In this document: piece after piece, positions 39,042 through 63,763 of the stretch
Layout of the letters: each line of letters starts with the position of its first letter
Position numbering within the stretch: the stretch's first letter is position 1
Assembly (NCBI GenBank): GCA_036336855.1
Contig: JAYZFI010000052.1
Span: 73,178 to 137,177, forward strand
Length of the DNA stretch: 64,000 bases
Direction of reading: 5' to 3'
From: Candidatus Latescibacterota bacterium
Lineage (GTDB): Bacteria > Latescibacterota > UBA2968 > UBA8231
Translations under genes and position numbers: made by a program
The notes under the pieces: model-generated
What the model was told of the DNA's origin: nothing
Databases searched by the model: none
What the model saw: only the letters and a program-made list of their open reading frames with translations

Positions 39042-42725
<3,684 letters not shown>

Positions 42726-42726
<1 letters not shown>

Positions 42727-43451
42727 TGGCGCTGGAGGCAAGGGGTCTGGTGAAGGCTTATTCTCGGCGGCGCGTCGTTGACGGCGTGGCACTTCGTGTC
42801 GATTCCGGCGAAATCGTCGGCCTGCTCGGCCCCAATGGCGCCGGCAAGACAACGACCTTCCACAGTATTGTCGGGTTCGTCCGGCCCGACGCTGGACAGA
42901 TCTCCTTGGATGGCACCGACATCACATCAAAGCCCATGTACCGCCGCGCCCGCATGGGGATCGGCTACTTGCCTCAGGAGACCTCTATTTTTCGTGGCCT
43001 CACCGTGGCGGAGAACATCGTCGCTGTTATGGAAGCTCGGGGCTACCCGCCGGATGTGCGCTCCGATCGCCTTGCCCAGCTGCTCGACGAGCTTCACCTT
43101 GAGCCGCGGGCACAACAACGGGCCGACACCCTGTCTGGGGGCGAGACGCGACGCGTGGAAATCGCTAGGGCTCTGGCCACTGAGCCTCGCTATATGCTGC
43201 TCGACGAGCCCTTCACTGGAATTGACCCGCGGACCGTCGAGGATATCCAGATCATCGTTGACCAACTGCGGCAGAAGGGATTGAGCATCCTGATCACCGA
43301 CCACAACGTACGCGAGACACTGCAGATCACCGATCGCGCCTACATCATGGTCGATGGCCGCATCCTGACTGCTGGCAGCGCTCGCGAACTCACAGAGGAC
43401 GAGGATGTGCGCCGTCTCTATCTCGGCGAGCGTTTCCGCATGGACTGGTAG
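42726..43451 (+). CDS. lptB: LPS export ABC transporter ATP-binding protein
   Basis: Walker A GPNGAGKTT, signature LSGGETRRVEIARAL, Walker B MLLDEPFTGIDP. 241 aa, immediately upstream of rpoN as in the conserved lptB-rpoN arrangement. Confidence 0.93.
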
Positions 43452-43510
43452 GCTCCGCAGTTCTCCGGCGGAGACGGATTTCCTTCGCAGCAAACGTTGT
43501 ACCTTACTTC

Positions 43511-43539
43511 TTGACGAGTGCTCGGGCCCCGGCTATATT
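43511..43539 (+). promoter_or_regulatory. sigma-70-like promoter candidate for rpoN
   Basis: TTGACG-N17-TATATT in the 159-bp lptB-rpoN spacer, about 70 nt upstream of the rpoN start. Confidence 0.45.
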
Positions 43540-43610
43540 AGCGCAGGATTACTCACCCAACTCATTCAGAGAGATGAAGTTACAGAGATAGGTAAGGTTC
43601 TCGGAATCCA

Positions 43611-46063: not shown

Positions 46064-46109
46064 ACAGCTGCTGACGCAGCCGTATGAGCAAGAGCGTTTC
46101 GTTTCTCAC

Positions 46110-47339: not shown

Positions 47340-47365
47340 CTCCGGGAAGGACTTCAACGGTAGTC

Positions 47366-47932
47366 TCAACCGACCAAAGCGGCGCGCAGGGCGTGCGAGC
47401 GTTCGCAAATAGGACGCTCGGGTCTCGGCACGGGCTCTTCGCCGCGCTCGAGGCGCCAGACGAAGACCGCCGGGCCCTCCGACTCGAAGTGCAAATCGAG
47501 CTTGGCTTCAAAGTCGGCGGGATCGTCGATGGTGTACACCGTCTTGAGACCGGCGGCGCGGGCCATGCCTCCGAAGTCGACGGTGCCCGCGCCGGGGACC
47601 GGCTGATTGCCGGTGACTTCGTAGGTGCCGTTCTCGGTGATGACCAACGTGTAGTTGGGGGCGGTGCTCTGGGTGAAGGTGACCAGGGATCCCAAGCACA
47701 TGAGAGTGCTGCCATCGCCGTTTAGGCAGATCACGCGGCGCTCCGGCTGCGCCAGAGCGATGCCGTATGCGAAATCGGCGGCGTGTCCCATAGCGCTGTC
47801 GACGGACGCGTAATCGAGGGCGGTATTGGATAGCTCCGCCCAAGGCATGGCGACGCTCATGGTGGTGACCACAACGTCGCCGTCGCTGCGGCGCGCGGCA
47901 AGCTTCTTCAGACAATCGTACTTGTTGAGCAT
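47366..47932 (-). CDS. ThDP-dependent decarboxylase beta subunit (ComE/sulfopyruvate- or phosphonopyruvate-decarboxylase-like)
   Basis: 188 aa after trimming to MLNKYDCLKKL. ThDP/Mg motif ..ICLNGDGSTLMCLGSLVTF...VITENGTYEVTG... Paired with an alpha-like subunit 10 nt upstream. Confidence 0.7.
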   Translation of the reverse strand: MLNKYDCLKKLAARRSDGDVVVTTMSVAMPWAELSNTALDYASVDSAMGHAADFAYGIALAQPERRVICLNGDGSTLMCLGSLVTFTQSTAPNYTLVITENGTYEVTGNQPVPGAGTVDFGGMARAAGLKTVYTIDDPADFEAKLDLHFESEGPAVFVWRLERGEEPVPRPERPICERSHALRAALVG

Positions 47933-47942
47933 TTGGAATCCC

Positions 47943-48437
47943 TTACTCCGTTTCCGTTGCCAGCAGCACCGCTGCCGGCAACGAGCGCTCGTTGGCAAGG
48001 GCAAAAGCCTCGTCGATCTGACCTCGGGTTTGGTTGTCGTCGTCGAGAACGGAATAGGGGATATCCCAAGCCTTGAGGGTGGGCTCGAAGAACGTGGCTG
48101 CCGTGTCGACTCGCGCGGTACCGGACTGCATGGTCTTGATGCCGCGGTAACCCATGAGCATCACCAATGGCAGGCCCATGTTGTAGGCGGTGCCGCGAAA
48201 GGCGTCGCCGGTCTCTAGGAAGCCGGTGTTCTGGATGATGACAACGGGTTTGTAGCCGCCCAGGTACATTCCGCTGGCCACGGCGAAGGCCTCGCCCTCG
48301 CGGGTGACACCGATGACATCGATGTTACTATCGGCCCAGAGCAGCTCGAACAGGGCTCGCGAGCCATTGTCGGGCAGGCCGACGACATGAGTGACGCCGT
48401 TGGCCTTGAGGGCGTCGACGATGTCAGAGGCCTTCAT
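47943..48437 (-). CDS. ThDP-dependent decarboxylase alpha subunit (ComD-like)
   Basis: 165 aa after trimming to MKASDIVDALKANGVTHVVGLPDNGS.. with ..TREGEAFAVASGMYLGGYKPVVIIQNTGF.. (pyrimidine-binding domain pattern). The ATG shares one base with the upstream stop (TGATG). Confidence 0.7.
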   Translation of the reverse strand: MKASDIVDALKANGVTHVVGLPDNGSRALFELLWADSNIDVIGVTREGEAFAVASGMYLGGYKPVVIIQNTGFLETGDAFRGTAYNMGLPLVMLMGYRGIKTMQSGTARVDTAATFFEPTLKAWDIPYSVLDDDNQTRGQIDEAFALANERSLPAAVLLATETE

Positions 48438-49627
48438 CAGGCCCAGATCGAACGGTTGGCCACGCCGTAGGCGAAGGCGGAATCCTGAATGCCGCCGACG
48501 TACTGAGCCGTACGCGATGCCGGTACCGAGCCTTCGTACCAAGCTTGGAAGGTGGGGTTGAACTTGGTTAGCGAGTCCCGATTGGCCTGACTGTCGTTGC
48601 CTGCGGCGATGTAGGCGTTGTTGAAAACGCCGTTCTCCTTCAACCCGGTACCGCCGGCTTCCTTCACGCGCGCGTCGATGCCGGAGAGGATCTCACCCGC
48701 GTCATTGCCGCCAACAGCGCCGATGTGGGCTTCGGTGATGCCGCCGTGGGTAAGGGTGACCCAGGTGCTGAAGCCGTTCTTGATCTCACCGGAGCGTTTT
48801 ATCTCGACGTCGCCAGCGACGACCCGCGGTTGCGGCTCGACAATGCTGTCGAGGTTAGGAATGCGCGAAACTGGGTAGATGAGGCCTGCGGGTCGGTCGT
48901 CGCCGAAGTAGCTCTCGAAGACTTTGCGCACGGTGTCGATGCGCTCCCAGGTCTTCGCGGGCTCGTCGTCGACGGCGACGAGGATCTCCATGAACGCGGT
49001 CTGCTTTTTGAAGTCGATACCCTCTTCATCCAGGCCCTTGGCGTACTGCTCCTCGAAGATGAACTCCGTCTCCTTGGCCACATCCGGGCCGAGGGTAGTG
49101 ATTATCTCATCACCCTTCTTGTGCAGCACGGAAGCGCCGCTGGGCTGGTGATCGACCCAGGAGCCGTAGTCGAGCTTGCCACCGCCGATCTCGACATCGC
49201 CGAGGGCAGCTTTGACCTGCACCTCGAACAGTGCCACGGGATCGGGAAAGCCCTCTTGATGAGTGAAGCGTGCCATGCGATTCGAGCGCAGCGCGCCCCC
49301 TGTGACAGCGTTGATCATGGCGCCGTACACAGAGTTGAAATCGTTCTTGAAACGGTCGCATTCGTCGCGATCCGCCGAGGGCGTCGTCCATAGCACATCG
49401 GTCTTGTACACATCGGACCAGTGCGCCTTGCCGAGCTCGAGACCGGCGGCCAGATTCTCGATGGTTCCGAACCACTCGGATCCGATGTTATTTGGGTACT
49501 GGGTCCCCACATTGCCGCTGGGCTCCACCAACCGCGTGACCTTGGAATCGTCGTCGATCTGAACTACTTCCGTGGTGCTGCAGAACACGGCGCCGGGCCG
49601 GTGGCGTAAGATGTGGACTTCAGCCAT
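48437..49627 (-). CDS. 396-aa protein that appears to contain three tandem RidA/YjgF-like repeats; function unknown
   Basis: Start trimmed to MAEVHILRH (ATG 49627). Three segments each end with a RidA-like pattern (F..Y..........R........L/I........E/V): ..FNSVYGAMIN..RSNRMARFTHQ..ALFEVQV.., ..VFESYFGDDRPAGLIYPVSRIP..IVEPQ.., ..FQAWYEGSVPASRTAQYVGGI... Recognised by eye only. Confidence 0.4.
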   Translation of the reverse strand: MAEVHILRHRPGAVFCSTTEVVQIDDDSKVTRLVEPSGNVGTQYPNNIGSEWFGTIENLAAGLELGKAHWSDVYKTDVLWTTPSADRDECDRFKNDFNSVYGAMINAVTGGALRSNRMARFTHQEGFPDPVALFEVQVKAALGDVEIGGGKLDYGSWVDHQPSGASVLHKKGDEIITTLGPDVAKETEFIFEEQYAKGLDEEGIDFKKQTAFMEILVAVDDEPAKTWERIDTVRKVFESYFGDDRPAGLIYPVSRIPNLDSIVEPQPRVVAGDVEIKRSGEIKNGFSTWVTLTHGGITEAHIGAVGGNDAGEILSGIDARVKEAGGTGLKENGVFNNAYIAAGNDSQANRDSLTKFNPTFQAWYEGSVPASRTAQYVGGIQDSAFAYGVANRSIWA

Positions 49628-49687
49628 GGTGCAGGCTACCTGCCTCTCTGTGTCATCGTTTCGAATGAAGATGGCCAGGTGCCGCAG

Positions 49688-49702
49688 GCACCTGCGGTGC
49701 CA
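49688..49702 (-). promoter_or_regulatory. candidate sigma-54 (-24/-12) promoter for the RidA-like/ComDE/LarA-like operon
   Basis: The minus strand reads CTGGCAC-CGCAG-GTGCC. This is a perfect TGGCAC -24 element, correct GG-N10-GC spacing, and -12 GTGC instead of TTGC. The GC lies 60 nt upstream of ATG 49627. Confidence 0.4.
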
Positions 49703-49776
49703 GTGATGGCACCTCATACCAACAGAAAATAGGCCCCCCTCGTACTCCCCTCAAACAGAAGATAGAGCGTGCAAGT

Positions 49777-50466
49777 GTGATGACGAGTCAAGCGGTGCTG
49801 TTCGTGAAGAACCCCACTCCAGGCCGGGTGAAGACGCGATTGCAGTTCCATCTTGGCGCCGAGGGTGCTTGCCGTCTCTACTCCGCCTTCGTTGGCGACT
49901 GCGCGAGCCTGCTGGCGTCGTGCCGCGCCGATTGCAAAGTGGTCGCCTACGCCCCGGCTGATGCCGAGCCGCACTTGCGCGATCTGTTGCAGAGTGTGCA
50001 GGGACTCACCTTTGAGCCGCAGGCAGAGGGTGATCTCGGCCAGCGCATGGCGGCGGCTTTCACGCGCGGCTTCCTAATCGGGGCACAGCGGATCGTCCTC
50101 GTCGGCTCCGACAGTCCCTCGCTTCCGGTGGAGCTTGTCGACCGCGCCCTATACGAGCTTGAGGACCATGACGTCGTCATCGGACCGAGCCTGGACGGGG
50201 GCTACTATCTGATCGGGTTGCGTCGGATGCTGCCGGAGATCTTCGCAGAAATCGAATGGAGCACCGGACAGGTGCTGGCACAGACACTGGCGGCATTGCC
50301 AGAGGGCGCCCAGCTCTCGGTGCTACCGCCATGGTACGATGTCGACGAACCAGAGGCGGCGGCCTTTCTGCGCCAGCACCTGCAAGCGCTGGCTCGCAGC
50401 GGCATGCCGGTGGCGCCCTTGAGCGCCGAGGCGCTGTCCGATCTGAAACTGCCTTCGCCCTCGTGA
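49777..50466 (+). CDS. DUF2064/TIGR04282-family glycosyltransferase-like protein
   Basis: N-terminus ..AVLFVKNPTPGRVKTRL.. and ..VLVGSDSPSLP.., ..DGGYYLIGL.. match the DUF2064 pattern. Confidence 0.7.
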   Translation: MMTSQAVLFVKNPTPGRVKTRLQFHLGAEGACRLYSAFVGDCASLLASCRADCKVVAYAPADAEPHLRDLLQSVQGLTFEPQAEGDLGQRMAAAFTRGFLIGAQRIVLVGSDSPSLPVELVDRALYELEDHDVVIGPSLDGGYYLIGLRRMLPEIFAEIEWSTGQVLAQTLAALPEGAQLSVLPPWYDVDEPEAAAFLRQHLQALARSGMPVAPLSAEALSDLKLPSPS

Positions 50467-50473: not shown

Positions 50474-51241
50474 TCAGAGACCCATGATTCGGTAGCCACC
50501 GTCAACGTAGAGAATTTCGCCGGTGATACCGCGGCTCATGGGGCTGCACAGAAAGACCGAGGCATCGGCGACCTCCTCGACATCGACGTTGCGCTTAAGG
50601 GCAGCGCGCTCGGCGTGAGTGCGCTGCATAGTGCTGAAGTCGCGAATACCGCGAGCGGCCAGGGTCTTGATGGGCCCGGCGGAGATTCCGTTGACGCGAA
50701 TCCCCGAGGGGCCGAGATCGCTGGCCAGGTAGCGGATGCCCGACTCGAGGGCTGCCTTAGCCACCCCCATGACATTGTAATTGGGAACGGCACGCTCACT
50801 ACCCAGGTAAGTGAGGGCGACGACACCTCCGCCGTTCTTCATCAGCGGCTCGGCGGCGCGCATTAGCACGTTCAACGAATAGGCGCTGATGTCGAGGGCG
50901 AGGTTGAAGCCGTCGCGTGAGGTGTCCGCAAAGCGGCCCTCCAGATCCTCGCGCTTGGCGAAGGCGATGGCGTGCACGAGCGCGTCGAGTCGCTCGTACT
51001 CGTCGCCCACGGTGCCGAAGGCGGCGGCAACGGAGTCGGTATCGGACACGTCGCACTGCACGAGAAGCGGCGGACGCTGCAGCTGATTGACGATCTTCTC
51101 GATGCTCGCCAGCTCGCGATCACCGAGATACCCCAGGGCCAGCTGCGAGCCCTCACGGTCTAGGGCGCGGGAGATGGCCCAGGCAATACTGCGATGGTTG
51201 GCGACGCCGGCGACAAAGCTGACTCGGTCCTGCATCAACAT
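50474..51241 (-). CDS. fabI: enoyl-[acyl-carrier-protein] reductase (NADH), FabI type
   Basis: ..FVAGVANHRSIAWAISRAL.., catalytic Tyr/Lys region ..NYNVMGVAKAALES.. and ..ISAGPIKTLAA... Start trimmed to MLMQDRV (ATG 51241) with GAGGAGA upstream. Confidence 0.92.
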   Translation of the reverse strand: MLMQDRVSFVAGVANHRSIAWAISRALDREGSQLALGYLGDRELASIEKIVNQLQRPPLLVQCDVSDTDSVAAAFGTVGDEYERLDALVHAIAFAKREDLEGRFADTSRDGFNLALDISAYSLNVLMRAAEPLMKNGGGVVALTYLGSERAVPNYNVMGVAKAALESGIRYLASDLGPSGIRVNGISAGPIKTLAARGIRDFSTMQRTHAERAALKRNVDVEEVADASVFLCSPMSRGITGEILYVDGGYRIMGL

Positions 51242-51264: not shown

Positions 51265-53091
51265 TCACTCGTCGTCCAACTGCAGGCCCAAGCGGTTGAG
51301 TCGGTAATCCACAACGCGGCTACGGGCGAAGGCCTTATGGCCTCGCAGTTGGTGCAGACATCGTCGCAGAGTCTGCTCTTCGCCCTCCTTGCTGACTAGT
51401 AGGGCGAAGCCGCCGCCGCCGGCGCCAGTAAGCATTCCGCCTTCGATGAGTTCCGCCACTTCGCCTGCAAAGAGCTGCTGGATATCAGAGGTCGTGGCCT
51501 CGGGGTCGAGGATGCAACGCAGCGCCCAATAGCGAGTCGCTAACTTGCCGAGAGCAGGATAGTCCTGGGCCGAGAGCGTGGCGACAATCTCGTCGTGCAG
51601 TTGCAGGGACTCTGAAACCGCCGGGTAGCGGAGCCGGTCTCGCGACAAATAGGCGTCAAGCACGGCGTTGAGTCCACGGGTGGCACCACGGGCGATGCCG
51701 GTGTCGAACAGCACGATGCGCTCGACGAAGGTGTTTTCGTCGACTTCGATGTGGCGCAGCTCTGGGGCGGGCAGTCCCTCGGTCGGCGGCGCGTAGAAGT
51801 CCTTCACGGCACTGTCGCCGCCGCGGGCGCCACGCGCGTCCTGCCAACCCGAGTTGAGGCCGATGGACTGCTCGAGAAGAACGCTCTGGTCGTAGAGCGA
51901 AGGATATTCTCCCTCAGAAGTGCCGGCCGGGTCACCGACGGCTCGGTAGAGGGCCTTGAGAAGCGCCGCGGCGAGGATGCTGCTGGTGCCGAGGCCAGAG
52001 CCCTGCAACACGGCACTGGCGGTTTTGATCTCCAGTCCGCCGCCGCCGGTGAAATCAACGACGTCCTGCACCACATCATGGGAATCGGGACGGATAATCC
52101 CGCTGTGCACGAGGGCCTGCTTGGCCATGCGCAAGGACTTGTCGCCCCCGCGGCGATAGGAGAAGAACAGCTCGCTCTGGGCGGCACGGTCGCCCTTGTC
52201 GTTAGCTTCGAAGTCGGCATGGAAGTCGGTGGATCGCGCCTTGAGAACGAGTCGCGCCTCCGGGAGCCGGTTCAGAGTGACCGTCACCGGCGTCACCGGC
52301 TGATCGGAGCCCTCCACCTGCAGATCGATGGCGGCGTTGACGGTCTTGCCGCCCTGCTCCTTGCTGCGGGCGTGGTTGTCGGAGGCGTTGGCACTGGAGA
52401 TTCCCAGGCGAAGTGGTGAGCGCACGGTGAACACGGTGTCCCAGTCCGCTTCTTCCATGGGTAGGCATCGAGTCTCGGCGACGTCACGAAGGCTGTGTCG
52501 CAAGTCGACGCGCTGCAGTTGGTTGATGCGGGCCCTGTAGGCTTGGGGTAGGGAGGCGAAGTCTTTCGCCTCCTTCAGCACTACAATGTGCCTACTATCG
52601 ACAGCGCAGGCGGGCAGGTTGCGGCGGCGCCAGATCTTGGGATCCTGAAGGCGCTCGTAGATGTCAGACATAATCAGGCAGACGCGCATGCCGGCGAGGC
52701 GGCGACGGCTTCCCTCGAGTCCGTTGAGAAAACGGTCAAGACGTTTGAGGCTATCGATTAGGGGTTTCACCGACTTCTCCGGCACCAGCCGCAGTGTGTC
52801 TACGTGACTGACGTCGAGAGCGTCTTGCACGAGCTCCACGAGTAGGCCGGGCAGCTCGCGCTCTACGGCGTCTCCGAACAGCTTTTCCCAATCCTCTGAT
52901 ATCACGGTTTCCAAGAGCCGATCTACGGCATCGCCGATGCAGCCCTCGCGCGCCAGATCCGCACCGAGAAGCAGAGCGCGAATTGCGGCTCGTCGCTTCT
53001 TGATATCGGATTGACCTTGGCGGGCTTCGCGGAGAATTTCAGCCAGCAGCTCTCCGGCTTCAGCCAGATAGGCAGCGGTCGCTTCCTGCAT
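51265..53091 (-). CDS. GHMP-family sugar kinase (fucokinase/heptose-kinase-like) fused to a ~230-aa N-terminal helical domain of unknown function
   Basis: ..RSPLRLGISSANASDN....GGKTVNAAIDL.. (GHMP motif I region), ..LQGSGLGTSSILAAALLKAL.. (motif II), ..GWQDARGARGG.., ..TGAGGGGFALLVSK.. (motif III). Start trimmed to MQEATAAYL (ATG 53091), 1 nt after the upstream stop. Confidence 0.7.
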   Translation of the reverse strand: MQEATAAYLAEAGELLAEILREARQGQSDIKKRRAAIRALLLGADLAREGCIGDAVDRLLETVISEDWEKLFGDAVERELPGLLVELVQDALDVSHVDTLRLVPEKSVKPLIDSLKRLDRFLNGLEGSRRRLAGMRVCLIMSDIYERLQDPKIWRRRNLPACAVDSRHIVVLKEAKDFASLPQAYRARINQLQRVDLRHSLRDVAETRCLPMEEADWDTVFTVRSPLRLGISSANASDNHARSKEQGGKTVNAAIDLQVEGSDQPVTPVTVTLNRLPEARLVLKARSTDFHADFEANDKGDRAAQSELFFSYRRGGDKSLRMAKQALVHSGIIRPDSHDVVQDVVDFTGGGGLEIKTASAVLQGSGLGTSSILAAALLKALYRAVGDPAGTSEGEYPSLYDQSVLLEQSIGLNSGWQDARGARGGDSAVKDFYAPPTEGLPAPELRHIEVDENTFVERIVLFDTGIARGATRGLNAVLDAYLSRDRLRYPAVSESLQLHDEIVATLSAQDYPALGKLATRYWALRCILDPEATTSDIQQLFAGEVAELIEGGMLTGAGGGGFALLVSKEGEEQTLRRCLHQLRGHKAFARSRVVDYRLNRLGLQLDDE

Positions 53092-53092
53092 C

Positions 53093-54613
53093 TCAGCTGA
53101 CCTCCACCGACGCGCCAGGAGGTACGGACGCGGTGTCCATGGGAGGTGGCTGCAAGGAGGCCAGTCGGTCCCACATACACAGAGAGACACCGCGTTCGCA
53201 GCCGTTGTCTTGGGAACGCAGAAACCGGGAGTGTGCCAGACCCGCGGGGCGGGGATTGGCCTCTACCACCACGGCGCGGAACTCGCTGGAGGCGCCGAGA
53301 TCGAGGACGAGGTCGACACCGACGAGCGCGACGTCTCCCAGACACTCGGCGGCCCTGGTCGCCGCTCGGACGATGCGCTGACGATCGTCGGGCAGCAGGG
53401 TGACCAGGGCGCCGTCGCGGCGGCGCACGAGATTTTCGAGCGCCTCTTCCAGGTCGATGATGGTGCCGCCCCGACCCCGTGAAGCCGGTGTGTCGGCGTC
53501 GGTACCTATCTGCGCGTAACCCGACTCAGCACAGCTCTGGCCGTCGATGGTGGTGGCCACGTGCAGCCGCAGAGCCAGGGTATGGTAGGTGCCGGAGCAC
53601 GGATCTCTGTAGACGACGCCGTCCCTTCGCTCCTCGACAACGGCGGCGCCCCACTCCCAACAAGCGGCGAGCCGATGCTTGAGGCTGGCGGTGTCGTTGC
53701 CGCGCAGCAGGAAGACACACTCGCCCTCGGTTCCGGTGTTGGGCTTGACCACCAACTCCTCGGTCTTACCGGCAAAGCGTTGCGCCAGCTTGTGCTGGCC
53801 GGGGGGCAGCAATCGCTGCCGCGGCACGTCGATCCCATGCTCACGCCAGCGCCGCACGGAGGAGGCCTTGTCATCAGCGACCAAGGAGGCGCTGTAGTTG
53901 TTGAGGAGCGGTATCGCGTCGAGCTGCTTGGCCCACAAGCGATGGCGCTCGGTCTGTTCGTCGCCCAAGGCGACGAACTGCGCCGAATGCAAGAGCAGCG
54001 GCGTTTCCAGGGCACACTCGAGGAAGCGATCTCGCAAGCCTTCGTAGTAGAGGACCCGTTGCGCTCTGCCGCCGTCCAGCCAGTCTCCATGGACGCTGAC
54101 GACGTTGAATTGGAAGGGACCGCCGCGCCGGCTGTCGCTGGTGGCCGCGTCTGCGATGAGGGGGTAGAGCTCGTGGGTGATGAGCGGCGCCGCGGCAAAA
54201 ACCACACCGTGATGGTGAAAGCCCTCCAGTTCGCGCTCTACTCGGTTCAGGGAGCGTGGCTCAGGGCAGATGCAGACCTCCGGCGCCATGGATGCGCTCA
54301 CTCGTGCCTCGATGGCGAGATGAATGATGCGCTCGCAATACAACGGATCTCGCCACAGCGCTGTCAGCACTGGAGCCATCGCGTCGGCGTGCAGCACCGG
54401 AGCCAGGAGTTCACGCGCCCGCTCGCAGACCTCGCGCAGCACCGACCGCGCGTGCGTGGTCAGGGTTGGCATGGGAACGTCTTCCTCAATGCGGGCAGCC
54501 ACCAGGTACTTTAGCAGCACGCTCGCCTCCTCCGCACGCAGAGGAGTGGTGGGACGCGACAGCGATAGGGCTTCGGCAGCTCGCCGAGCGACTTGGCGGC
54601 AGAGATCTCTCAA
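53093..54613 (-). CDS. ATP-grasp-fold protein (carboxylate-amine ligase type) with ~200-aa unassigned N-terminal region
   Basis: ..ELVVKPNTGTEGECVFLL.., ..AAVVEERRDG.., ..VALVGVDLVLD.......AVVVEANPRPAGL.. follow the ATP-grasp order. TTG 54613 overlaps the giant-gene stop (TTGA). An alternative GTG 54520 is preceded by GGAGGAGG. Confidence 0.6.
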   Translation of the reverse strand: MRDLCRQVARRAAEALSLSRPTTPLRAEEASVLLKYLVAARIEEDVPMPTLTTHARSVLREVCERARELLAPVLHADAMAPVLTALWRDPLYCERIIHLAIEARVSASMAPEVCICPEPRSLNRVERELEGFHHHGVVFAAAPLITHELYPLIADAATSDSRRGGPFQFNVVSVHGDWLDGGRAQRVLYYEGLRDRFLECALETPLLLHSAQFVALGDEQTERHRLWAKQLDAIPLLNNYSASLVADDKASSVRRWREHGIDVPRQRLLPPGQHKLAQRFAGKTEELVVKPNTGTEGECVFLLRGNDTASLKHRLAACWEWGAAVVEERRDGVVYRDPCSGTYHTLALRLHVATTIDGQSCAESGYAQIGTDADTPASRGRGGTIIDLEEALENLVRRRDGALVTLLPDDRQRIVRAATRAAECLGDVALVGVDLVLDLGASSEFRAVVVEANPRPAGLAHSRFLRSQDNGCERGVSLCMWDRLASLQPPPMDTASVPPGASVEVS

Positions 54614-57600
54614 GAGCTTGCCTCCAACGCCTGCAGGTACTGCTCCCCGGCGTAGCTGAGATCGCTAAGCACGCGGCGAGCCTGCAGGCCTACCTGCTGC
54701 CAGTCGAAGTTTCGGCCCTCAGCATCGGCAGTGGTTCGCTCGTGCACTTCCTCGCGCAATGTGACCCGATCCCAGAGGCCGACGCCGATGTTGGGCTCGA
54801 TGAGAACCGCCCGCCAACCTGAAACCGTGCCCTGCCGGCGTCGTTTGAGGTGCTGCAGGATGAACCGAGGCTGGCCATTCCCGTCGAGTTCGACCTCGAC
54901 GAGATCTCCGGCCTCGGCAAAGCGCGGCGTCACAAGAAAGTCGAGCATCATGTAGCGCGGTGTTCCGTAGGACACTCCGGCTAGATCCGAGCCGATCTCC
55001 CGTCCCGTCTCCTGCTGATACTCCTCGGCGCGCAGTTGCGCGTAATCCGACAGCGCTTCCATGACCGACGCAGAGGCCTGCTCCAGACCTGCCAACAGCT
55101 GATCGCGATGCTCGGGCCGGACGAAACGAGGCAGAAACTGCTCGAGACTGCCGCCCCGGCCGACGTTGGTGATAAGCTGCTTGCTATTGAGGGTGATGAA
55201 GTGGGAGAATTGCCAGCGGTGCTCCGGTGGTGCCAGGGGATCGGCAGTGGAGACGATGACCCGATGGGACCCGTATAGCGGCGAGTGCGGTCGACGCCGG
55301 CGCTCCACGGGAGATCCCCACTCCACGATCTGACGGTGCACGAAGTCGGCGAGGAACTGTTCCGTCGCCCAGAACTCTGGCGAGGCGACGATGACCTCCT
55401 GAATGGCGACGTTGTGCCGAAGAGAGATCTGGTAGACGAAGTCGACGGTACGCTCGAGCTCTTTCTCATCCACGGCCTCTTCGCCGGGACGGCGCAGCAC
55501 AAAGGCCGCCTGATTGCGTCCCCCGGACTCGGCGGCATCTTTGACCACGATGACGCGGTGCTGAGCGGCGAAACTGCGCAAGCCCGGGTAGTCCGTTTCC
55601 GGCAGGCCGTTCTCGATCCACGATCGCGCCGTGCGCTCTTCACCGGCGCGCTGGGTGAAAGCGGCGAGCCAGTCGATCTCCCGGGGCGTCTCCACGCCGG
55701 GGTGGCGCTCGAAGATGTCGGGATACTTGGCCTTGTCGTAGGTCGTCCAAGTGTGAAACAGGGACTGGACCGAATAGGGGAGGCCGCAATCCTCAAACTC
55801 CCCCTTGGTGTAGAGAGGATCGCCGTGGAAGGGATAGACTATGGAGGCGAGTACGGGCTCACGAAAGCGCACGGCGAGCCGCACTCCCTTGGGGTGGGCC
55901 GCCTCCGCCCGCGAGCGTGCGTTTGCCTCGCTCAGACCTCGGCAGCGAACTAGGGCAGTGACATACTCTTCGGCCGATACGTAGAGATGCCCACTGCTGA
56001 CCTCTGCGACGCGGCGCTCCCCTGCCTGGCGAAGATGTACCTGACGGGTGATAATGAGGTTGGCTCCCCTGCGCCCGGTGGTGAGCAACTCGGCATTCAG
56101 GCTCGGGCCCTCGCGCAGTGCCCGTGAATAGTGCGTTCGTCCCACCGGCAGAGCGATGATGTGGTTCACCCGGGCCGACGCAGCGATGATCTCGGGATCG
56201 AAGTCGGCGAAGACTTCGGGCAGAGGAAAGCCGTCGTTGCGGATGAAGGCGAGCTCGCGCAATTGTCCATAGGATCTCCACTTGAGCTCGGCAGGACCAT
56301 CGGCGTCCGCGCCGATGGCGTCGACTTGGGTACCGGACAGGAAGTTTCCCAGCAACTGATCCTGCTCTTCGACGCTGAGTTCCCCGACCTCGGTGAGCTG
56401 TGTGACCACGAGGCGCAGATAGCGATGGAGCCAGTCGTGCCGAGCGACGGCGAGCTCGTAGAGGGCTTCGCCGGAATACGACGAAAAACCGACGCCCCGG
56501 GAATAGACCCAAGGTCGGTACTCGTAGAAATGGTCGTTGATAGTCTCGGCGAAGAAGTCGGCCAGCGCTCGCCAGATTTCCTGCGTATCGGTGTTCTCGG
56601 GAGCGCGCGAGAAGGGCAGCGTGGACTCCACAGCCAGCAGGATATAGAACAGCTCCGCGCCCCGCGCCACCATATCGAGGTGGATCTGCGCAGTGCCCTC
56701 GTCGGCCGCCCGTTCGACTGCGGCCTGGGCGAGGCGGCCGAAGTCGCCCACGTCCTCGTAGCCTCCGGCGATGGCACGCCAGTTGTCCACGTCGACCTGC
56801 CGTCCCAGAAAGAGCGCGGTCAGGTGCTCGATGAAGAGTTGAGCCTCGTCGATCTGTTCCTCGACGTAGAGCTGCCTGACCAGGGTCAGCAGGGCGTTGC
56901 GCGTGTGGCTGATGAAAGCGCCGAACTGACTCTCCGTGACCAGCGAATTGCCATCACCGAGAGCGGCTTTGGCAGCGGTGAAGGCTTCATCGAAGGAGGT
57001 GGATTCAGAGGCTGCCGCCTCCACAGCACGATAGCGCTCGTTGAGCGCTCGCGCTCGTGAGATCCTCTCGGCAAGCTGGCGGCGTGCTTCTAGGGCGACG
57101 ACGGGGCGGTCTTCGGAAGCCTTATTAGAGCTCTCTATCCCCTTCTCCTCGCGAAATTCGTGAGGCGTTGCCACTACTGCGGGGCAGAGCAGATTCACCG
57201 GTGCATCGTCGGGCCAGTGCGAGCCTCCGCAAGCGAGGATGGCTTTGGCCATCCTCGCGCGGAAGCGCTCGATCTCTTCCGGATGGGCACCGGCCAAAAG
57301 GAAGCTGCCCCCCAAAGCGAGAAAGTCCTCGAAGGTCAACTGCTCTAGCGGCAGGCCCCCCGCGACGCGCAGAAGAGATTGGCTCAGAACCTCGTCGCGC
57401 TCGCGCAGTCTACCGAAGCGCCTGAGCTTGTCGACCTCGGCCAACTGGCGCTGCACCTCCTGTTCGCCGCGGACCTCAGCGACGATCTCGGCGTAGAGGC
57501 GTAAAGCCGATTCGTGGCCTTCCTCGGTCAGCGCGGTCGCCAGGCACTGGCAGCGCCGCCGCCGCCGCCTCATCTCTGCTCGCCACGCCTCGACGGTTTC

Positions 57601-60600
57601 CTCGCCGACGCCGATGCTGAGGTAGATCGGCTGACGATCGATGGCTTCGCCGGCGGCGAACCAGAGCTGCACGTCATAGCGGTTGAGGGCGCGACGACGT
57701 GCGCCCGAAGCTCCGTCGACGATGACGAGAGCGCTGTCAGGCCGGTTCTCGCACATGAGCTGGACGATGTGGGCGGGATTTTCTAACAGGCGCAGCAGCT
57801 CGCGGTGGGGAACGCCGGCGTCGAGAACGTCGGCGCCCTGCAGAGCCATCTCAAAGGAGCGTTCGGGACCGCGAGACTCCAGGGCGAGGACGTGGATGTT
57901 GCCTCCAAGACGATTCGCCAATCGTCGCCGGGTGTCGGCATCGATATCTGTAGCGGTGGCCCAGGCATCGAGTGTAGGGCCATAGGTTCCCATATTGGCG
58001 TCGATCTCAGCGTCGCTGAAGCCGGCACAGTTCAGGTCTAATCGCGCCTGTCGCGCAATCTTTTCGAGCCGGCTGTCGCTGGTATAGCCGAGCAGGTCCT
58101 GGGTCGACAATCCGGTGGAGGAGACCATGCGCAAGTCCGCCGCTGACTCGGGGGCGGGAAAGAGGTGGTGCAGGGCAAAGGCGTCATCGGGATCAGCGCC
58201 CACCAGTTCGGCGATGGTGCGGTCTCGCCCGCGTTGCTCCAGGACAGAAAAGCCCTCGGTCAGCAGGGACCCTATATCTTGACCGTCACGATCTAGGGCA
58301 TGGAACAGATGGTCTCCGGTGCCAGCGAGGATCTCGAACTTGCGCATCCCCACCGAGAACCGGCCGTCCTGAGTGTCGGGCTTATACTCCGCGGCGAGGA
58401 CGGCGACAAAGCCTCCCGGTGCCGCCCGCGGATGGCGGGTCCGCGCCTGCTGAACTCCTTGTCGCAGCAGCCAGGACTTGAAGAAGGGCATGAAGCGATT
58501 GACGTGCTCAGCGCCGGCTACCATGTGGTGGATCCCCCAACGTGCTACCAGCGCGGACGTCACGCGATCAGTCTGGCGCAGCTCCGGCTGTCCCAGGTTG
58601 TCGAGAACACGGGCGAGGCGAGTCGCCTGGAAGACGGGGATTCGGGATCTCGCCACGCCCCGATAGCGCAGCTCAAAGTGCTCGCGCAGAGTGGTCTCAT
58701 CAGCGAGGTATTCGGCGGCCCACTCCTCCCACTCAAAGTCGCTGGTGAACTCGGGCCGCCGGTCCAGCAGTCGCGCCGAGAGATTGGCGACGCGCGCGTG
58801 GTCTTCGCGAGGGATCCCTAGCTGGCGAAGCTTCTCGTGCCGGCCCAGGGTCAGCACGAACTCCAAGAAAAGGCCGTCCTTGGGAACACAGTAGCCGCCA
58901 TAGCCTTCTCCCGCGGGATGGATGATGCGATCCCGACGTCGACTCATCTGATCACCCATCTCCTCAATGTCGCCGTGTCGCGTGGCATTGACCATGAGCG
59001 CCAGCGAGTTGGAGAACGCGAAGTGGGAGGCCATGGAGGCATTCTCGCCGGTCTTGAGGACTTCCGGCTCCATGAGACTGTCGTAGCTGCGCACCGACTT
59101 GTTGATGAGCCCGTAGATCTCGCGACCGACACGGGCGGCGGCGCGATCCGCCCCTCCCACCCACTGCGACCAAGTCTCCACCGATTCCCGCTCGCGGTGA
59201 CCGAGGTCAACGCGACTTGGCGTGTAGAGCAGGTGATAGCGCTTGCCGGCGCCGGTGGCACGCAGGTTATGGAGGGGATCGAGAGTGAGGGCGTTGAGAC
59301 CGCGATCGGCAAGAACCTCCTTGCGAGCCGTGGTCTGGGTGAGACGCCCGTAACGGCGCAGATAGCTGCCGATGCGGTCTTCCACGTCGGCAGCGTGGAT
59401 CTCGCCCAGGCGCTCGAGAACTTCGCGGCGTGCCACGAAGCGAGTGAAGCTGGCCAGATCCTGGCGGTAGTCGGCGTCGCCCTCCACTACCGCGGTGAGA
59501 GCGGCGGCCTCATCGATACCACCGCTTTTGCGTAGGCGCTCGACCTCTTCCCAAAGAGTGGCGCCGTTGCGCTCCGCGACGCGATGCAGGGCACGGGTCA
59601 CCAGGCTCGCTGGTGGCTGGGCGAGCAGCTCTTCGACGGCCGGTGGATCCTGAACGGCGTCTGCCGATTGCGTGCCCACATCCTCTTCCGTGAGCTCGAT
59701 GAGAGCACCGAGCACGGCGACTTCGACCCGAACAGCGTGGTTGCGACCCAGCACCAGACTGACCGCTGCCTCTTCGGCAATGTCCTCGGTAGCGGCGGCT
59801 TCTTCCACCTCGACCCAGATGCCTAGCTCGTGGATGATCTGGCGGGCGAGCGCGCGCAGGCGCTGGCGGTAGTGCTGAATCCGCTCATCCACGGCCTCCT
59901 CGAGCCCCTGAGCCTGCACCACGCTGGCCAGCGACATAGACTCCTCCAGCCAGGTGCGCACATAGCCATCGGTCATGCCTGCAGACTGGGTGGTGAGTAC
60001 GTGCAGCACCGGCAGGGGACGGCGAGCCCGGAAGACCTCCTGGAAATTGCCGTCGAGTTGCGCCCCCTGGGTGGCCGGTTCGGGACGATCGTCGTCGCAA
60101 AGTGGCGAGAACAGGATGCTCAGTAGAGCGCGGAAGGGCTCTTCTTCCGCCTCGACCCGTTGCTGGATGGCGCCGACGTGGCGGCGATAGACCTGCTCGA
60201 CCCGCGAGCCAGTGGCTATCACCGCGGTCGCTTCGGCGTACTGACGGCACCAGTCAAGCGCCCGCACCTCGGCATCGAGGGCCAATGGATCCTCATCTGT
60301 GGCCGCCGACCACAGGAGCAGGCGCGCCGCCGACAAGAACTCGGATTCCAACACGGATCGCAGATTGCGCGCCCAGTGCTCGGCCATCTCCTCGCGGAAG
60401 GATTCCTCCATGCCGGCGATATCAATCACCGTGCGGGTAGACTCATGACCGTCGTCGTCGACGAGGACCTCCTCCTTGATGAACAGCGGGATCGCCTCGA
60501 TCCAGTGATCGGCATGCTGCAGCCAGCGATAGTCGGGTGAGGAGTAGACACGATTCCCGGCGAGCCGCAACAGCTTGCGCAGGTTCTCGGACTTGCCCAG

Positions 60601-61974
60601 ATAGGGCTCGTCGAACTCGTTGATCTTCACCAGAAGGTGAGAGCCAGTGGGGGAGGGGCGCTGGCTGATGACGACGTAGGCGGCCTGTCGCGACGGCGCG
60701 GACATCATCTCGGCGCGCACGCGCTCGACGAGCAGCAGGCGATCGTGAGCCGAACGTGCCGCCACTCCGTCTGCGACGGTGGGCAGGCTGGTGCTGGCGA
60801 GTTCGTCACCGTGGTCTTCAACCCGGGCCCGGGCCTGATGCAGTTGCCGCAATAGCTCGTCTCGCTGGGCATCGAGGACGGCCTCTTCGAAGCGCTCGCA
60901 CGCCCCCTCCAGCTGGATCAGTGGGATCTCCTCCGCAGAAGTGAGCAGAATTTCGAGTTCGAGGGCTTGACTCTGCAGAGCCGGTGATCCGGCGCTGGCT
61001 TTGCGGATTTCCACGGCCAGCACGGGCCAGCGAGGCAACGGAGAAACCAGCACGGAGTCGGCGAACAACGTCCCCTGATTGTGGAAGGCCCGGCTCATGC
61101 GGCCAAACACGAGCTGCTCGCCAGCCTCTCGCACTTCGGCCGTGAGGCATCGGATGTTATCGCCCTCTACCTCAGCGTCGTAGTCGCGGAGTACGTCGAA
61201 CAGCAGGAAGCGTTTGTCGTCGACTTCGATGTCACTGTCGAGAATCTCAATGGCACGGGCGCGGTCATACGGCAGGTCGAATCGATCCTGGCCGAGGAGC
61301 CAGGTCACATGGCGGTCGCGCTCCTGGGGCTCTGAGTCGGAGCTGCGCCGCAAGTACAGGGAGAACAGATTGCCTGAGTCGAGCAGCTGGCCTTCAAGTA
61401 GACCGTGTATGAGCACGCGATCCGTACGATCCAGAACGGCGTAGAGGTCGGTGACCCAGTGCAGCGCCGCCCGTTGGCTCTTGCCAGCGGCGACGGCGAG
61501 CTGATGAAACTGGGCAAGGGCGAGAATGAGCTCGAGGCCGCGCAGGCGCTCCGGCGCCAACGCCGTGGGGTCGTCGGTGATCTCTTCCAGCGAGAGACCG
61601 AGCTCGGGAGCCACATCGACGGAAACCCGAAACGCGCCGTCGGCATCGAGGCTGACCAAACGATCACCCCCGTGAACGAAGCGAACGGCGTGCTCACTAT
61701 CGTTCAGTTGTGCGCCGAGCTCAGTGACGCGCTCGGCGTCGGAGAAGCGGCGGGAGACCAGCTGCCAGGCGCGTGTGCACAGCTGTGCCGCCAGTTGACA
61801 ATCGGCGGAAGCGGTGTCCTCGAGGGCTATACTGGTGTCGGTGAAGGGGCGGGGGCCGAATCGCAAGATGCCTTCGGCGGCGACCTTGCCCGGCCCCCGG
61901 CGACCGCGCCAGATGCCGGCGCGCGGATTGTAACTGGCGACGAGACGGAGGGGAAAGTCGTGATTAACCAACAT
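54610..61974 (-). CDS. giant (2454 aa) multidomain protein: UDP-glucose/NDP-sugar dehydrogenase-like core plus C-terminal ATP-grasp-like domain, remainder unassigned
   Basis: Single uninterrupted ORF. UGDH-family motif order near nt 58300..59240: LLYTPSRVDLG, EVLKTGENASMASHFAFSNSLALMVN, GYGGYCVPKDG (Cys codon 58888..58890), VAVLAAEYKPDTQDGRFS. ATP-grasp-like C-terminus near nt 54610..55600: RVIVVKDAAESGGRNQAAFVL, AIQEVI, ITNVGRGGSLEQ, VLIEPNIGVG. Confidence 0.75.
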   Translation of the reverse strand: MLVNHDFPLRLVASYNPRAGIWRGRRGPGKVAAEGILRFGPRPFTDTSIALEDTASADCQLAAQLCTRAWQLVSRRFSDAERVTELGAQLNDSEHAVRFVHGGDRLVSLDADGAFRVSVDVAPELGLSLEEITDDPTALAPERLRGLELILALAQFHQLAVAAGKSQRAALHWVTDLYAVLDRTDRVLIHGLLEGQLLDSGNLFSLYLRRSSDSEPQERDRHVTWLLGQDRFDLPYDRARAIEILDSDIEVDDKRFLLFDVLRDYDAEVEGDNIRCLTAEVREAGEQLVFGRMSRAFHNQGTLFADSVLVSPLPRWPVLAVEIRKASAGSPALQSQALELEILLTSAEEIPLIQLEGACERFEEAVLDAQRDELLRQLHQARARVEDHGDELASTSLPTVADGVAARSAHDRLLLVERVRAEMMSAPSRQAAYVVISQRPSPTGSHLLVKINEFDEPYLGKSENLRKLLRLAGNRVYSSPDYRWLQHADHWIEAIPLFIKEEVLVDDDGHESTRTVIDIAGMEESFREEMAEHWARNLRSVLESEFLSAARLLLWSAATDEDPLALDAEVRALDWCRQYAEATAVIATGSRVEQVYRRHVGAIQQRVEAEEEPFRALLSILFSPLCDDDRPEPATQGAQLDGNFQEVFRARRPLPVLHVLTTQSAGMTDGYVRTWLEESMSLASVVQAQGLEEAVDERIQHYRQRLRALARQIIHELGIWVEVEEAAATEDIAEEAAVSLVLGRNHAVRVEVAVLGALIELTEEDVGTQSADAVQDPPAVEELLAQPPASLVTRALHRVAERNGATLWEEVERLRKSGGIDEAAALTAVVEGDADYRQDLASFTRFVARREVLERLGEIHAADVEDRIGSYLRRYGRLTQTTARKEVLADRGLNALTLDPLHNLRATGAGKRYHLLYTPSRVDLGHRERESVETWSQWVGGADRAAARVGREIYGLINKSVRSYDSLMEPEVLKTGENASMASHFAFSNSLALMVNATRHGDIEEMGDQMSRRRDRIIHPAGEGYGGYCVPKDGLFLEFVLTLGRHEKLRQLGIPREDHARVANLSARLLDRRPEFTSDFEWEEWAAEYLADETTLREHFELRYRGVARSRIPVFQATRLARVLDNLGQPELRQTDRVTSALVARWGIHHMVAGAEHVNRFMPFFKSWLLRQGVQQARTRHPRAAPGGFVAVLAAEYKPDTQDGRFSVGMRKFEILAGTGDHLFHALDRDGQDIGSLLTEGFSVLEQRGRDRTIAELVGADPDDAFALHHLFPAPESAADLRMVSSTGLSTQDLLGYTSDSRLEKIARQARLDLNCAGFSDAEIDANMGTYGPTLDAWATATDIDADTRRRLANRLGGNIHVLALESRGPERSFEMALQGADVLDAGVPHRELLRLLENPAHIVQLMCENRPDSALVIVDGASGARRRALNRYDVQLWFAAGEAIDRQPIYLSIGVGEETVEAWRAEMRRRRRRCQCLATALTEEGHESALRLYAEIVAEVRGEQEVQRQLAEVDKLRRFGRLRERDEVLSQSLLRVAGGLPLEQLTFEDFLALGGSFLLAGAHPEEIERFRARMAKAILACGGSHWPDDAPVNLLCPAVVATPHEFREEKGIESSNKASEDRPVVALEARRQLAERISRARALNERYRAVEAAASESTSFDEAFTAAKAALGDGNSLVTESQFGAFISHTRNALLTLVRQLYVEEQIDEAQLFIEHLTALFLGRQVDVDNWRAIAGGYEDVGDFGRLAQAAVERAADEGTAQIHLDMVARGAELFYILLAVESTLPFSRAPENTDTQEIWRALADFFAETINDHFYEYRPWVYSRGVGFSSYSGEALYELAVARHDWLHRYLRLVVTQLTEVGELSVEEQDQLLGNFLSGTQVDAIGADADGPAELKWRSYGQLRELAFIRNDGFPLPEVFADFDPEIIAASARVNHIIALPVGRTHYSRALREGPSLNAELLTTGRRGANLIITRQVHLRQAGERRVAEVSSGHLYVSAEEYVTALVRCRGLSEANARSRAEAAHPKGVRLAVRFREPVLASIVYPFHGDPLYTKGEFEDCGLPYSVQSLFHTWTTYDKAKYPDIFERHPGVETPREIDWLAAFTQRAGEERTARSWIENGLPETDYPGLRSFAAQHRVIVVKDAAESGGRNQAAFVLRRPGEEAVDEKELERTVDFVYQISLRHNVAIQEVIVASPEFWATEQFLADFVHRQIVEWGSPVERRRRPHSPLYGSHRVIVSTADPLAPPEHRWQFSHFITLNSKQLITNVGRGGSLEQFLPRFVRPEHRDQLLAGLEQASASVMEALSDYAQLRAEEYQQETGREIGSDLAGVSYGTPRYMMLDFLVTPRFAEAGDLVEVELDGNGQPRFILQHLKRRRQGTVSGWRAVLIEPNIGVGLWDRVTLREEVHERTTADAEGRNFDWQQVGLQARRVLSDLSYAGEQYLQALEASS

Positions 61975-62286
61975 ACTTCCCCAAACTCTTCAGAGCGGGG
62001 TTAGGCTCCTGTCTGTTGTAGCAGGAAGCCGATGGTGACGTTCTTGACGAAAGCCCTCGGGTGAGGTTTGGCGATGAGTTTGTCCCGAAGTAATGATGAG
62101 GGGGTTGCCAATCGAGTTTCCCGTTTCGGTCACGCGTTTCTCAACTCCGACAGAGACACGGTTGTTCCAGTTACTGGAGCCCTTGAAGGGACTCCCCAGA
62201 CAGAACGCCATAAGGTAGCCGGGCAAGGAGGAGAGCGCAACGCGATATGGTTCTCCCGGAAGGTGCTGCAGGAGAGGCGAAAGTCG

Positions 62287-62325
62287 AGAAAAATAAGCCC
62301 CCACCCCGGAATCGGAGAGGGGGCT
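62287..62325 (-). terminator. rho-independent terminator after the response-regulator gene
   Basis: The minus strand reads AGCCCCC-(16 nt)-GGGGGCT followed by TATTTTTCTC, about 26 nt downstream of the stop at 62351. Confidence 0.65.

Positions 62326-62350: not shown

Positions 62351-63763
<1,413 letters not shown>

Follow-up and report, generated by a model that had tools for sequence, protein, structure and literature searches.

A stretch of 64,000 nucleotides from the Candidatus Latescibacterota contig JAYZFI010000052.1 (hereafter the window) carries three abutting genes on the minus strand, which encode a giant protein with a nucleotide-sugar-dehydrogenase-like (UGDH-like) core, two ATP-grasp ligase domains and a GHMP sugar kinase. 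The giant gene (54610..61974) codes for 2454 amino acids and comprises an N-terminal domain, the UGDH-like module, a helical region and the first ligase domain, ATP-grasp A. It is followed by gene 2 (53093..54613, 506 amino acids, TTG start), which encodes ligase B with the ATP-grasp core at about residues 227-460 (53234..53935), and by gene 3 (51265..53091, 608 amino acids from its ATG), whose kinase domain spans about residues 197-605 (51277..52503). The open reading frame (ORF) of gene 3 stays open further, to a GTG at 53190. The giant gene ends in ...TCT TGA, and its TGA (54612-54610) overlaps the TTG of gene 2 (54613-54611), which has GGAGG 7 nucleotides upstream. A single nucleotide separates the TGA of gene 2 (53095-53093) from the ATG of gene 3 at 53091, with GGTGGAGG upstream of this ATG, and a Shine-Dalgarno-like GGAGG precedes each of the three genes. 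The ORF listing and a direct reading of the junctions bore out the gene layout described in a first-pass annotation of this DNA. The giant protein and the products of genes 2 and 3 align end to end with those of a Latescibacterota metagenome-assembled genome (MAG; locus L001), with 61%, 48% and 61% identity, and further alignments of the giant protein were obtained with 11 metagenome loci and about 100 representative clusters. This means that the window ORFs are real genes and not chance reading frames.

A representative search of 1.84 billion proteins, with residues 420-1619 of the giant protein as the query, returned 80 matches at E<1e-30, and ordinary UGDHs appeared only from about E 1e-12. 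The full-length matches were mostly giants of 2000-7944 amino acids, the remainder being contig-truncated fragments. We counted fusions among the roughly 50 representatives in which ATP-grasp A was detected, by mapping the window segments and family hidden Markov models (HMMs) onto them. The gene 2 ligase was fused directly behind ATP-grasp A in 21 of these, and a GHMP kinase was fused after ligase B in 14 (12 GalK-like and two Fkp-like, P0012 and P0033). The GalK-like fused kinases were missed by jackhmmer started from the window kinase and were reached from a GalK-like seed. When 12 long members were scanned with Pfam, GHMP_kinases_N was found in eight, and no other fused domain type, NTP transferase included, was detected. 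The order of the fused modules was always that of the window genes: UGDH-like fold with insertions, helical region, ATP-grasp A, ATP-grasp B and GHMP sugar kinase. Active-site residues were kept in all four catalytic modules.

The same partners are found side by side where they are not fused. L001 has the same giant/ATP-grasp/GHMP/FabI arrangement, and 11 further metagenome loci were found, all of which, apart from L006/L010, have the ATP-grasp gene behind the giant gene if the contig reaches that far. The ligase B gene adjoins the giant gene in L001, L004, L008, L009 and L016-L020; in the distant unfused members among these, it immediately precedes the giant gene (L016) or comes next after it (L017-L020). 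The fusions, the adjacency and the abutting or overlapping start and stop codons argue that the three genes are one functional unit. The window genes would then be the split form of a machine that is encoded elsewhere as a single polypeptide of 3000-5000 or more amino acids, which we propose tentatively as part of our best explanation. The conserved co-occurrence that the first-pass annotation wanted to see tested thus holds for the fusions and the adjacent genes and breaks down in three contexts where the giant gene stands alone, given below.

The family is undescribed and rare but widespread, and it is built from known enzyme folds. Its bacterial members come from Latescibacterota, Omnitrophota and Planctomycetota, with some fragments binned to Bacillota, and it is also recorded for a Thermoprotei archaeon and for the amoeba Pelomyxa schiedti. 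All named records are labelled as hypothetical proteins or carry a kinase label only. Pfam and NCBIfam gave generic domains, and we found no homologue with a defined function. The literature search, which included two preprints on Omnitrophota giant proteins, returned no description of the family. PADLOC had no match for any of the three proteins, so the system is not a known defence system. The expectation that no characterised pathway has this architecture was therefore upheld by the family records, the domain and defence databases and the literature. Two members stand out by their annotated host: P0030 (KAH3744193.1) is recorded under P. schiedti, an anaerobic amoeba, and P0036 (RLE64815.1) under a Thermoprotei MAG. 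Their presence could reflect horizontal transfer, assembly contamination or an ancient origin. Another member, P0045 (4426 amino acids), carries a CsrA-family Pfam match in its N-terminal extension (residues 1224-1247, E 4.5e-8, 33.4 bits, cutoff 27).

The UGDH-like fold occupies residues ~285-1460 of the giant protein (57595..61122). It is spread over about 1180 residues and split by five to six large, mostly helical insertions of 40-220 amino acids each. The Pfam and NCBIfam signal in the giant protein is that of a nucleotide-sugar dehydrogenase only; in Pfam, PF00984 matches residues 971-1037 with 26.3 bits (cutoff 25.4). The best PDB sequence match with phmmer was the UDP-ManNAc dehydrogenase 4r16 (E 2.8e-7), and a family profile run against the PDB sequences found nothing beyond UGDH. 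With an alignment of family members as input, AlphaFold modelled residues 61-1260 at a predicted local distance difference test (pLDDT) score of 84.5 and a predicted template modelling (pTM) score of 0.85, and Foldseek with this model retrieved almost exclusively UGDH-family chains from the PDB. We also built a 12-sequence family alignment for the giant protein. In hhalign, the family matched 17 ordinary UGDHs with a probability of 99.7% (E 4e-25) over a region that runs from the last Rossmann strands through the central catalytic domain to the beginning of the C-terminal domain. A weak alternative alignment placed earlier Rossmann elements far upstream, and this prompted us to splice hand-chosen conserved blocks (280-312, 426-502, 648-684, 905-1046, 1140-1236, 1276-1300 and 1372-1462), which aligned end to end with UGDH 1-436. 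The N-terminal blocks alone gave E 9e-5 at a probability of 60% and the C-terminal blocks alone a probability of 96% at E 5e-9. All three domains of the UGDH fold (N-terminal Rossmann, central helical and C-terminal Rossmann-like) are present, with large insertions. A by-eye assignment of VVISQRPSP as the PTP Rossmann strand was ruled out by hhalign.

The catalytic residues on the sugar side of the UGDH site are kept. The motif GGYCVPKD (58876..58899), with Cys1029 and Asp1033, aligns with GGxCxPKD of UGDHs, and Lys974 and Asn978, upstream of it, align with UGDH catalytic residues. Lys974, Asn978 and Cys1029 are invariant in the family, the most divergent members included, and Asp1033 is present in nearly all. 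The C-terminal motif YKxxxxDxRFS, matching catalytic and nucleotide-binding residues of UGDHs, is also kept. The module has therefore both the catalytic cysteine within GGxCxxKD and the Lys/Asn/Asp triad.

The next part of the giant protein, residues ~1461-1900 (56275..57594), is all-helical. It was included in a second AlphaFold model (residues 1255-2454, pLDDT 86, pTM 0.80), which is helical over this range; Foldseek gave only non-significant helical-repeat matches for it and Pfam gave nothing. ATP-grasp A was assigned by structure prediction to residues ~1995-2454 (54613..55992). Its Foldseek matches were the D-Ala:D-Ala ligase 3n8d (E 7.6e-6, TM-score 0.59), VanA, LysX/ArgX (5k2m) and the ATP-grasp peptide ligase 8ynq; the Ddl, VanA and LysX matches to the giant C-terminus had a probability of 1.0 and TM-scores up to 0.59. 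The ligase domain proposed earlier for this C-terminus was thus recovered by AlphaFold and Foldseek, but not by Pfam on its own sequence (no significant match, E 0.25). In the homologues Pfam found weak YheC/D-like matches (5 of 12 members) and, in one, GSH-S_ATP at E 2.9e-7. K..ESGGR, Q, NVGRGG, D and E-x-N (IEPN) are invariant in the family alignment.

Gene 2 matches ATP-grasp_3 (PF02655) with E 1e-9 and 39.1 bits (cutoff 23.2), with weaker Pfam matches to ATPgrasp_ST and YheCD and an NCBIfam match to the RimK family (E 2.8e-7). It had no sequence match in the PDB, and an exact-sequence look-up was without result. Hence both gene 2 and the giant C-terminus have the ATP-grasp fold. Both also have the ATP/Mg2+ residues, as read for gene 2 from the Pfam and NCBIfam alignments only. 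A TupA-like ATP-grasp of the Cj1438C type was not matched by Pfam in either gene 2 or ATP-grasp A, even at E up to 1.

Gene 3 matches GHMP_kinases_N (PF00288) with E 7e-7 and 29.8 bits (cutoff 22.3), and the GHMP motifs II and III, GSGLGTSS and LTGAGGGG, can be read in its translation. Its kinase domain aligns over the whole length with the fucokinase half of Fkp, and the best PDB match is the Bacteroides Fkp (9iip/5yys, E 7e-15). The N-terminal ~195 amino acids are a clade-specific extension unrelated to the Fkp guanylyltransferase, and gene 3 is not an equivalog of the full-length bifunctional enzyme. With this, the UGDH-like core, the two ATP-grasps and the GHMP kinase predicted in the first-pass annotation all have HMM support, structural support or both. 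None of the three conditions that the annotation had named for its own refutation was borne out. We observed two GHMP subfamilies as the kinase partner: the window, L001, P0012 and P0033 have an Fkp-like kinase and the other members a GalK-like one (e.g. L016 and L018). Displacement by a functional analogue could explain this, as could sugar specificities that differ between clades. No transmembrane segments were found in the proteins, and the giant protein has a net charge of -96. The proteins of the system are thus firmly predicted to be soluble.

Our best explanation, which we put forward with less than even confidence, is a cytoplasmic megaenzyme that would combine sugar activation, processing at a thiol active site and amide bond formation. 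The kinase has characterised relatives in fucokinase, galactokinase and HddA, which are anomeric sugar kinases. The GHMP kinase would phosphorylate a free hexose or an N-acetylhexosamine-type sugar at C1, and a separate nucleotidyltransferase, adjacent in two other examined genomes, would activate the sugar. The nucleotide sugar could then bind the UGDH-like site, where a covalent intermediate on Cys1029 would lead to a C6 carboxyl, either a uronic acid or a thioester. The two RimK/GshB/YheCD-type ATP-grasp ligases would use ATP to form amide bonds through acyl-phosphates, and the product may be a conjugate of a sugar acid with an amino acid or a short peptide, serving as a solute, precursor or polymer. 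The link to sugars comes from the kinase, nearest to the Fkp fucokinase and HddA and GalK-like in other members, and from the dehydrogenase fold, nearest to UDP-ManNAc and UDP-GalNAcA dehydrogenases.

From these relationships we infer a chemistry of sugar phosphorylation or oxidation coupled to amide ligation, and the neighbours in other genomes fit it. Enzymes of sugar-phosphate and hexosamine metabolism recur beside family members in unrelated genomes: NTP_transferase and a GalK-like kinase in L016 and L018, PGM/PMM in L015 (twice), L021, L022 and L023, GlmS-like GATase+SIS proteins in L021 and L023, ROK kinases in L016, L021 and L022, a GlcN6P-isomerase-family protein in L018 and a GH94 phosphorylase in L021. 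Some neighbours of the fused members are themselves oversized (L021 17371-21273; L023 1-3040; L022 21240-28205). Among these, the GlmS-like GATase+SIS proteins have 1300 and >2846 amino acids, and another one, of >3375 amino acids, combines GHMP, PGM/PMM and ROK. It looks as if these genomes have packed entire sugar-phosphate pathways into giant genes.

Several points weigh against the megaenzyme as outlined. Two family models score far below their cutoffs: TIGR03026 on residues 900-1040 of the giant protein (E 2e-15, 56.4 bits, NCBIfam cutoff 189.8) and NF009948 Fkp on gene 3 (E 9e-37, 126 bits, cutoff 721, model positions 585-971 only). The window operon has no clear nucleotidyltransferase, and only a convergent DUF2064/CofC-like gene lies nearby. 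No role could be assigned to about 1200 residues of the giant protein (N-terminal domain, insertions and helical region). In L006/L010, L013/L014 and L015 neither ligase B nor a kinase lies next to the giant gene, which points to the giant gene as the core and to ligase B and the kinase as frequent but detachable partners. The remaining points concern the cofactor side of the UGDH-like site. The family hallmark G-R-M-S-R-A-F (residues 291-297, 61084..61104) probably sits at the position of the Rossmann GxGxxG loop: the global hhalign alignment places it opposite GLGYVG of UGDH and AlphaFold shows a strand-loop-helix there, while the local hhalign alignment stops short of this block. G-R-x-S-R-A-F is conserved in most of the 39 members shown, and a minority differ at one to three positions. 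In most members the canonical NAD fingerprint is thus replaced, GxGxxG by G-R-x-S-R-A-F and the acidic end of beta-2 by Q-R, so neither the glycine fingerprint nor the acidic residue is present. Across most members EST is changed to LTT and PE(F/R)xxxG to PSRV[DN]LG, and the Glu of the PE(F/R) motif, which serves thioester hydrolysis, is absent, being Ser920 in every member aligned there. Since the cofactor-side motifs and the hydrolytic Glu are replaced family-wide, the standard two-step NAD-dependent oxidation is not assured, and the oxidation step looks less secure than the first-pass annotation assumed. The UGDH-like module is under strong selection with its thiol chemistry kept, and a conventional NAD-dependent dehydrogenase should not be assumed.

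These replacements are the ground for our main rival explanation, which we consider unlikely but worth serious attention: the same machine with another chemistry, in which the UGDH-derived module would no longer be an NAD-dependent dehydrogenase. The Cys/Lys/Asn/Asp pocket and the arginine-rich loop may instead act on a phosphorylated sugar or an acyl group, by binding or by transfer. For example, a thioester could be resolved by an amine instead of water, the hydrolytic Glu being Ser, and the ATP-grasps would supply or extend the acceptor. In human UGDH, a mutant with the equivalent Glu changed to Gln trapped the covalent intermediate. The cofactor-site replacements (G-R-x-S-R-A-F, Q-R, LTT and PSRV[DN]LG) are strongly conserved across the family together with the sugar-side catalytic residues, and none of the 12 long members scanned has a fused NTP transferase domain, all of which speaks for this rival. 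However, the parts that contact UDP and NAD in UGDHs, namely the C-terminal nucleotide-binding domain and the K/D/R motif, are retained, non-canonical NAD(P) binding is compatible with the sequence, and such a reaction would be without precedent in the UGDH fold. In a further and improbable variant, the system is a sparse ancient megaenzyme, spread over bacteria, archaea and an anaerobic amoeba, whose repurposed UGDH thiol site holds a hexosaminuronic acyl-thioester or a phosphorylated sugar, to which the two ATP-grasps add amino acids. Its product would be a nucleotide-sugar-acid-peptide, with a logic like that of the UDP-MurNAc-peptide or the talosaminuronic-acid peptide of pseudomurein; this, too, we would bet against. 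If true, it would mean a class of sugar-peptide metabolites not known before, and the UGDH fold would gain a new type of reaction.

Directly upstream of the giant gene lies a sigma-54-dependent response regulator gene (62351..63763, minus strand) with Pfam Response_reg, Sigma54_activat and HTH_8 domains. In all seven close loci with a full upstream region (L002-L005, L007, L008 and L012) a regulator gene 72-82% identical to it precedes the giant gene, and a C-terminal fragment (69-72%) was found at the contig edge in L006 and L010. Besides this sigma-54 response regulator, the close clade has a histidine kinase with a PAS domain upstream, and often also a protein of ~530 amino acids with an HDOD domain, whose gene separates the regulator from the giant gene in L001, L003, L004, L005 and L012. 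The regulator gene is followed by a terminator-like hairpin (62288..62325, minus strand, RNA fold -28.8 kcal/mol, z -3.0) and then UUAUUUUU. This hairpin was missed by a strict consensus terminator scan. Because the regulator gene ends in a strong hairpin and U-run, the giant operon has its own promoter. The scan for sigma-70 and terminator consensus elements stayed at the level of shuffled sequence, and no acceptable -24/-12 sigma-54 element was found ahead of either the giant gene or the HDOD gene, be it in the window or in nine related loci. Control of the giant operon by the adjacent sigma-54 regulator is therefore no more than a possibility.

Between the regulator and the giant gene in the window we read by eye the remnant of an HDOD gene (62001..62110, minus strand). 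Its translation, GNPLIIT..RDKLIAKPHPRAFVKN-VTIGFLLQQTGA followed by a stop, matches the two ends (N-terminus GNPLIILGDKIAKRPHLMSFVKG, C-terminus SATIGFLQQTGG) of the ~530-amino-acid HDOD proteins in L004 and L012. All that is left, with a frameshift, are the codons for the N-terminus (GNPLII..DKLIAKP..FVKN) and for the C-terminus (TIGFLLQQTGA and stop). L002 has at 5390-5697 an intact mini-ORF of ~100 amino acids that joins the same two HDOD ends. The retained ends may matter for the expression of the giant gene.

The conserved signalling genes bear on the idea, raised as an alternative in the first-pass annotation, that the system is a non-catalytic, mainly regulatory or structural scaffold, which would sense a sugar nucleotide or ATP, or organise enzymes, under the adjacent two-component system. 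In its favour, helical insertions without an enzymatic signature make up over half of the giant protein, whose conservation is very high from end to end (61%, compared with 48% for ligase B). Furthermore, the NAD fingerprint has been lost, and the close clade has kept the histidine kinase, the sigma-54 response regulator and the HDOD gene upstream. On the other hand, these signalling genes are clade-specific, the other members lying beside AraC-type regulators or none, and no -24/-12 promoter was found. Moreover, the catalytic residues are invariant in the four modules across archaea, bacteria and a eukaryote, and since catalytic motifs are kept in each of them, the UGDH-like module, ATP-grasp A and the kinase are better seen as enzymes than as a scaffold. 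We therefore disfavour the scaffold and regard it as very improbable.

Returning to the megaenzyme, its product could also end up outside the cell. In such a decoration of an envelope glycan or capsule, of the Campylobacter glucuronamide type, an amidated uronic acid would be placed in an exported polysaccharide. The combination of UGDH and ATP-grasp has a Campylobacter precedent, Cj1441 is among the structural matches, gene 2 weakly matches ATPgrasp_ST, which is associated with sugar transfer, and glycosyltransferases or a Polysacc_synt flippase lie a few kb away in L006 and L020. However, no glycosyltransferase, flippase or polymerase was found in or beside the window operon, nor fused in any member; a TupA-like ATP-grasp match was not found, and the recurrent neighbours are cytoplasmic sugar-phosphate enzymes and not export genes. 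We judge this explanation improbable, and both it and the scaffold are less likely than the other chemistry of the UGDH-like site.

A fourth gene, for a FabI-like enoyl-acyl-carrier-protein reductase (50474..51240, minus strand), follows gene 3. Its likely start is the ATG at 51240 (MLMQDR, as in L001), 24 nucleotides past the gene 3 stop, and its earliest possible start is a GTG at 51268 that overlaps this stop. The spacer suggests that it is probably co-transcribed with gene 3. The gene is 70% identical to that at the same position in L001, the only locus where the linkage could be checked as the other contigs end earlier, so that its part in the system is doubtful. The convergent DUF2064/CofC-like gene of the nucleotidyltransferase fold (49777-50466, plus strand; 47% identity in L001) might, speculatively, supply the missing nucleotidyltransferase. 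Next to it is a gene for a 426-amino-acid protein without a Pfam match (48437-49717, minus strand), which is also found beside the cluster in L001, with 76% identity. A small metabolic cluster at 45176-48542 encodes an HpcH/HpaI aldolase (45176-46063, plus strand), a LarA-N/DUF362-like protein (46110-47408, minus strand) and a thiamine pyrophosphate (TPP) enzyme as two overlapping ORFs, one for the N-terminal and one for the C-terminal TPP-binding domain (47366-48004 and 47943-48542, minus strand). By inspection and Pfam, the region 39051-45176 holds the housekeeping genes for CTP synthase, an LptC/LptA-like fusion (625 amino acids), an LptB-type ABC ATPase and RpoN (sigma-54), which means that the organism has sigma-54. 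Rfam found nothing in the whole window.

Our results define a testable protein family, with a conserved module of ~3500 amino acids, four intact active sites, a fixed order and natural fusions, in poorly understood and mostly uncultured lineages that include the giant-protein-rich Omnitrophota. If the proposed reading is true, a dehydrogenase fold has absorbed more than 700 residues of insertions and an altered cofactor loop while its thiol chemistry was retained, and the system probably leads to a hitherto unknown metabolite made of a sugar acid and an amino acid. In the window, the split version consists of three separate proteins of normal size, and expression and assays would be much simpler with these than with the fused giants.

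Among known enzymes, the giant protein shares with the nucleotide-sugar dehydrogenases (WecC/Cap5O 4r16 and 3ojl; UDP-GalNAcA dehydrogenase 3g79) three alignable domains, the GGxCxPKD cysteine, the Lys/Asn pair and K..D.R.S. It differs from them by the five to six insertions, the replaced GxGxxG and PE Glu, the ~1000 further residues fused to it and scores far below the TIGR03026 cutoff. Both ligase domains match the RimK/GshB/LysX/D-Ala:D-Ala ligases in fold and ATP/Mg2+ residues, but are too divergent for a family assignment. In the comparison with Bacteroides Fkp (L-fucokinase/L-fucose-1-phosphate guanylyltransferase), GalK and HddA, gene 3 aligns with the kinase half of Fkp and has intact GHMP motifs, but it lacks the guanylyltransferase domain, and the kinase is GalK-like in most fused members of the family.

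The closest pairing of a dehydrogenase fold with an ATP-grasp amide ligase is found in the HS:2 capsule locus of Campylobacter jejuni, with the UDP-glucose dehydrogenase Cj1441 (7kws, a Foldseek match) and Cj1438C, an ATP-grasp amidoligase that amidates the C6 carboxylate of glucuronate (PMC11800379). These are separate proteins of ordinary size, encoded with glycosyltransferases, and the ATP-grasp is TupA-like, whereas the window system combines two ligases with a kinase, lacks a glycosyltransferase and gave no TupA-like match. Giant multi-enzyme 'sugar-metabolism' proteins with PGM/PMM and ROK domains have been described in Omnitrophota (bioRxiv 10.64898/2026.06.07.730766; 10.1101/2023.11.21.568195), and neither preprint reports an ATP-grasp, GHMP or UDP-sugar dehydrogenase fold in them. 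Some members of our family are Omnitrophota proteins of 5600-5700 amino acids, and unassigned metagenome members reach 7900. Moreover, family members adjoin giant genes with PGM/PMM, ROK and GHMP, which is the Pfam set of the sugar module in bioRxiv 10.64898/2026.06.07.730766. If the proposed reading is true, the family is a recognisable building block inside some of these giants, while the window version, from a different phylum, has it split into ordinary operon genes.

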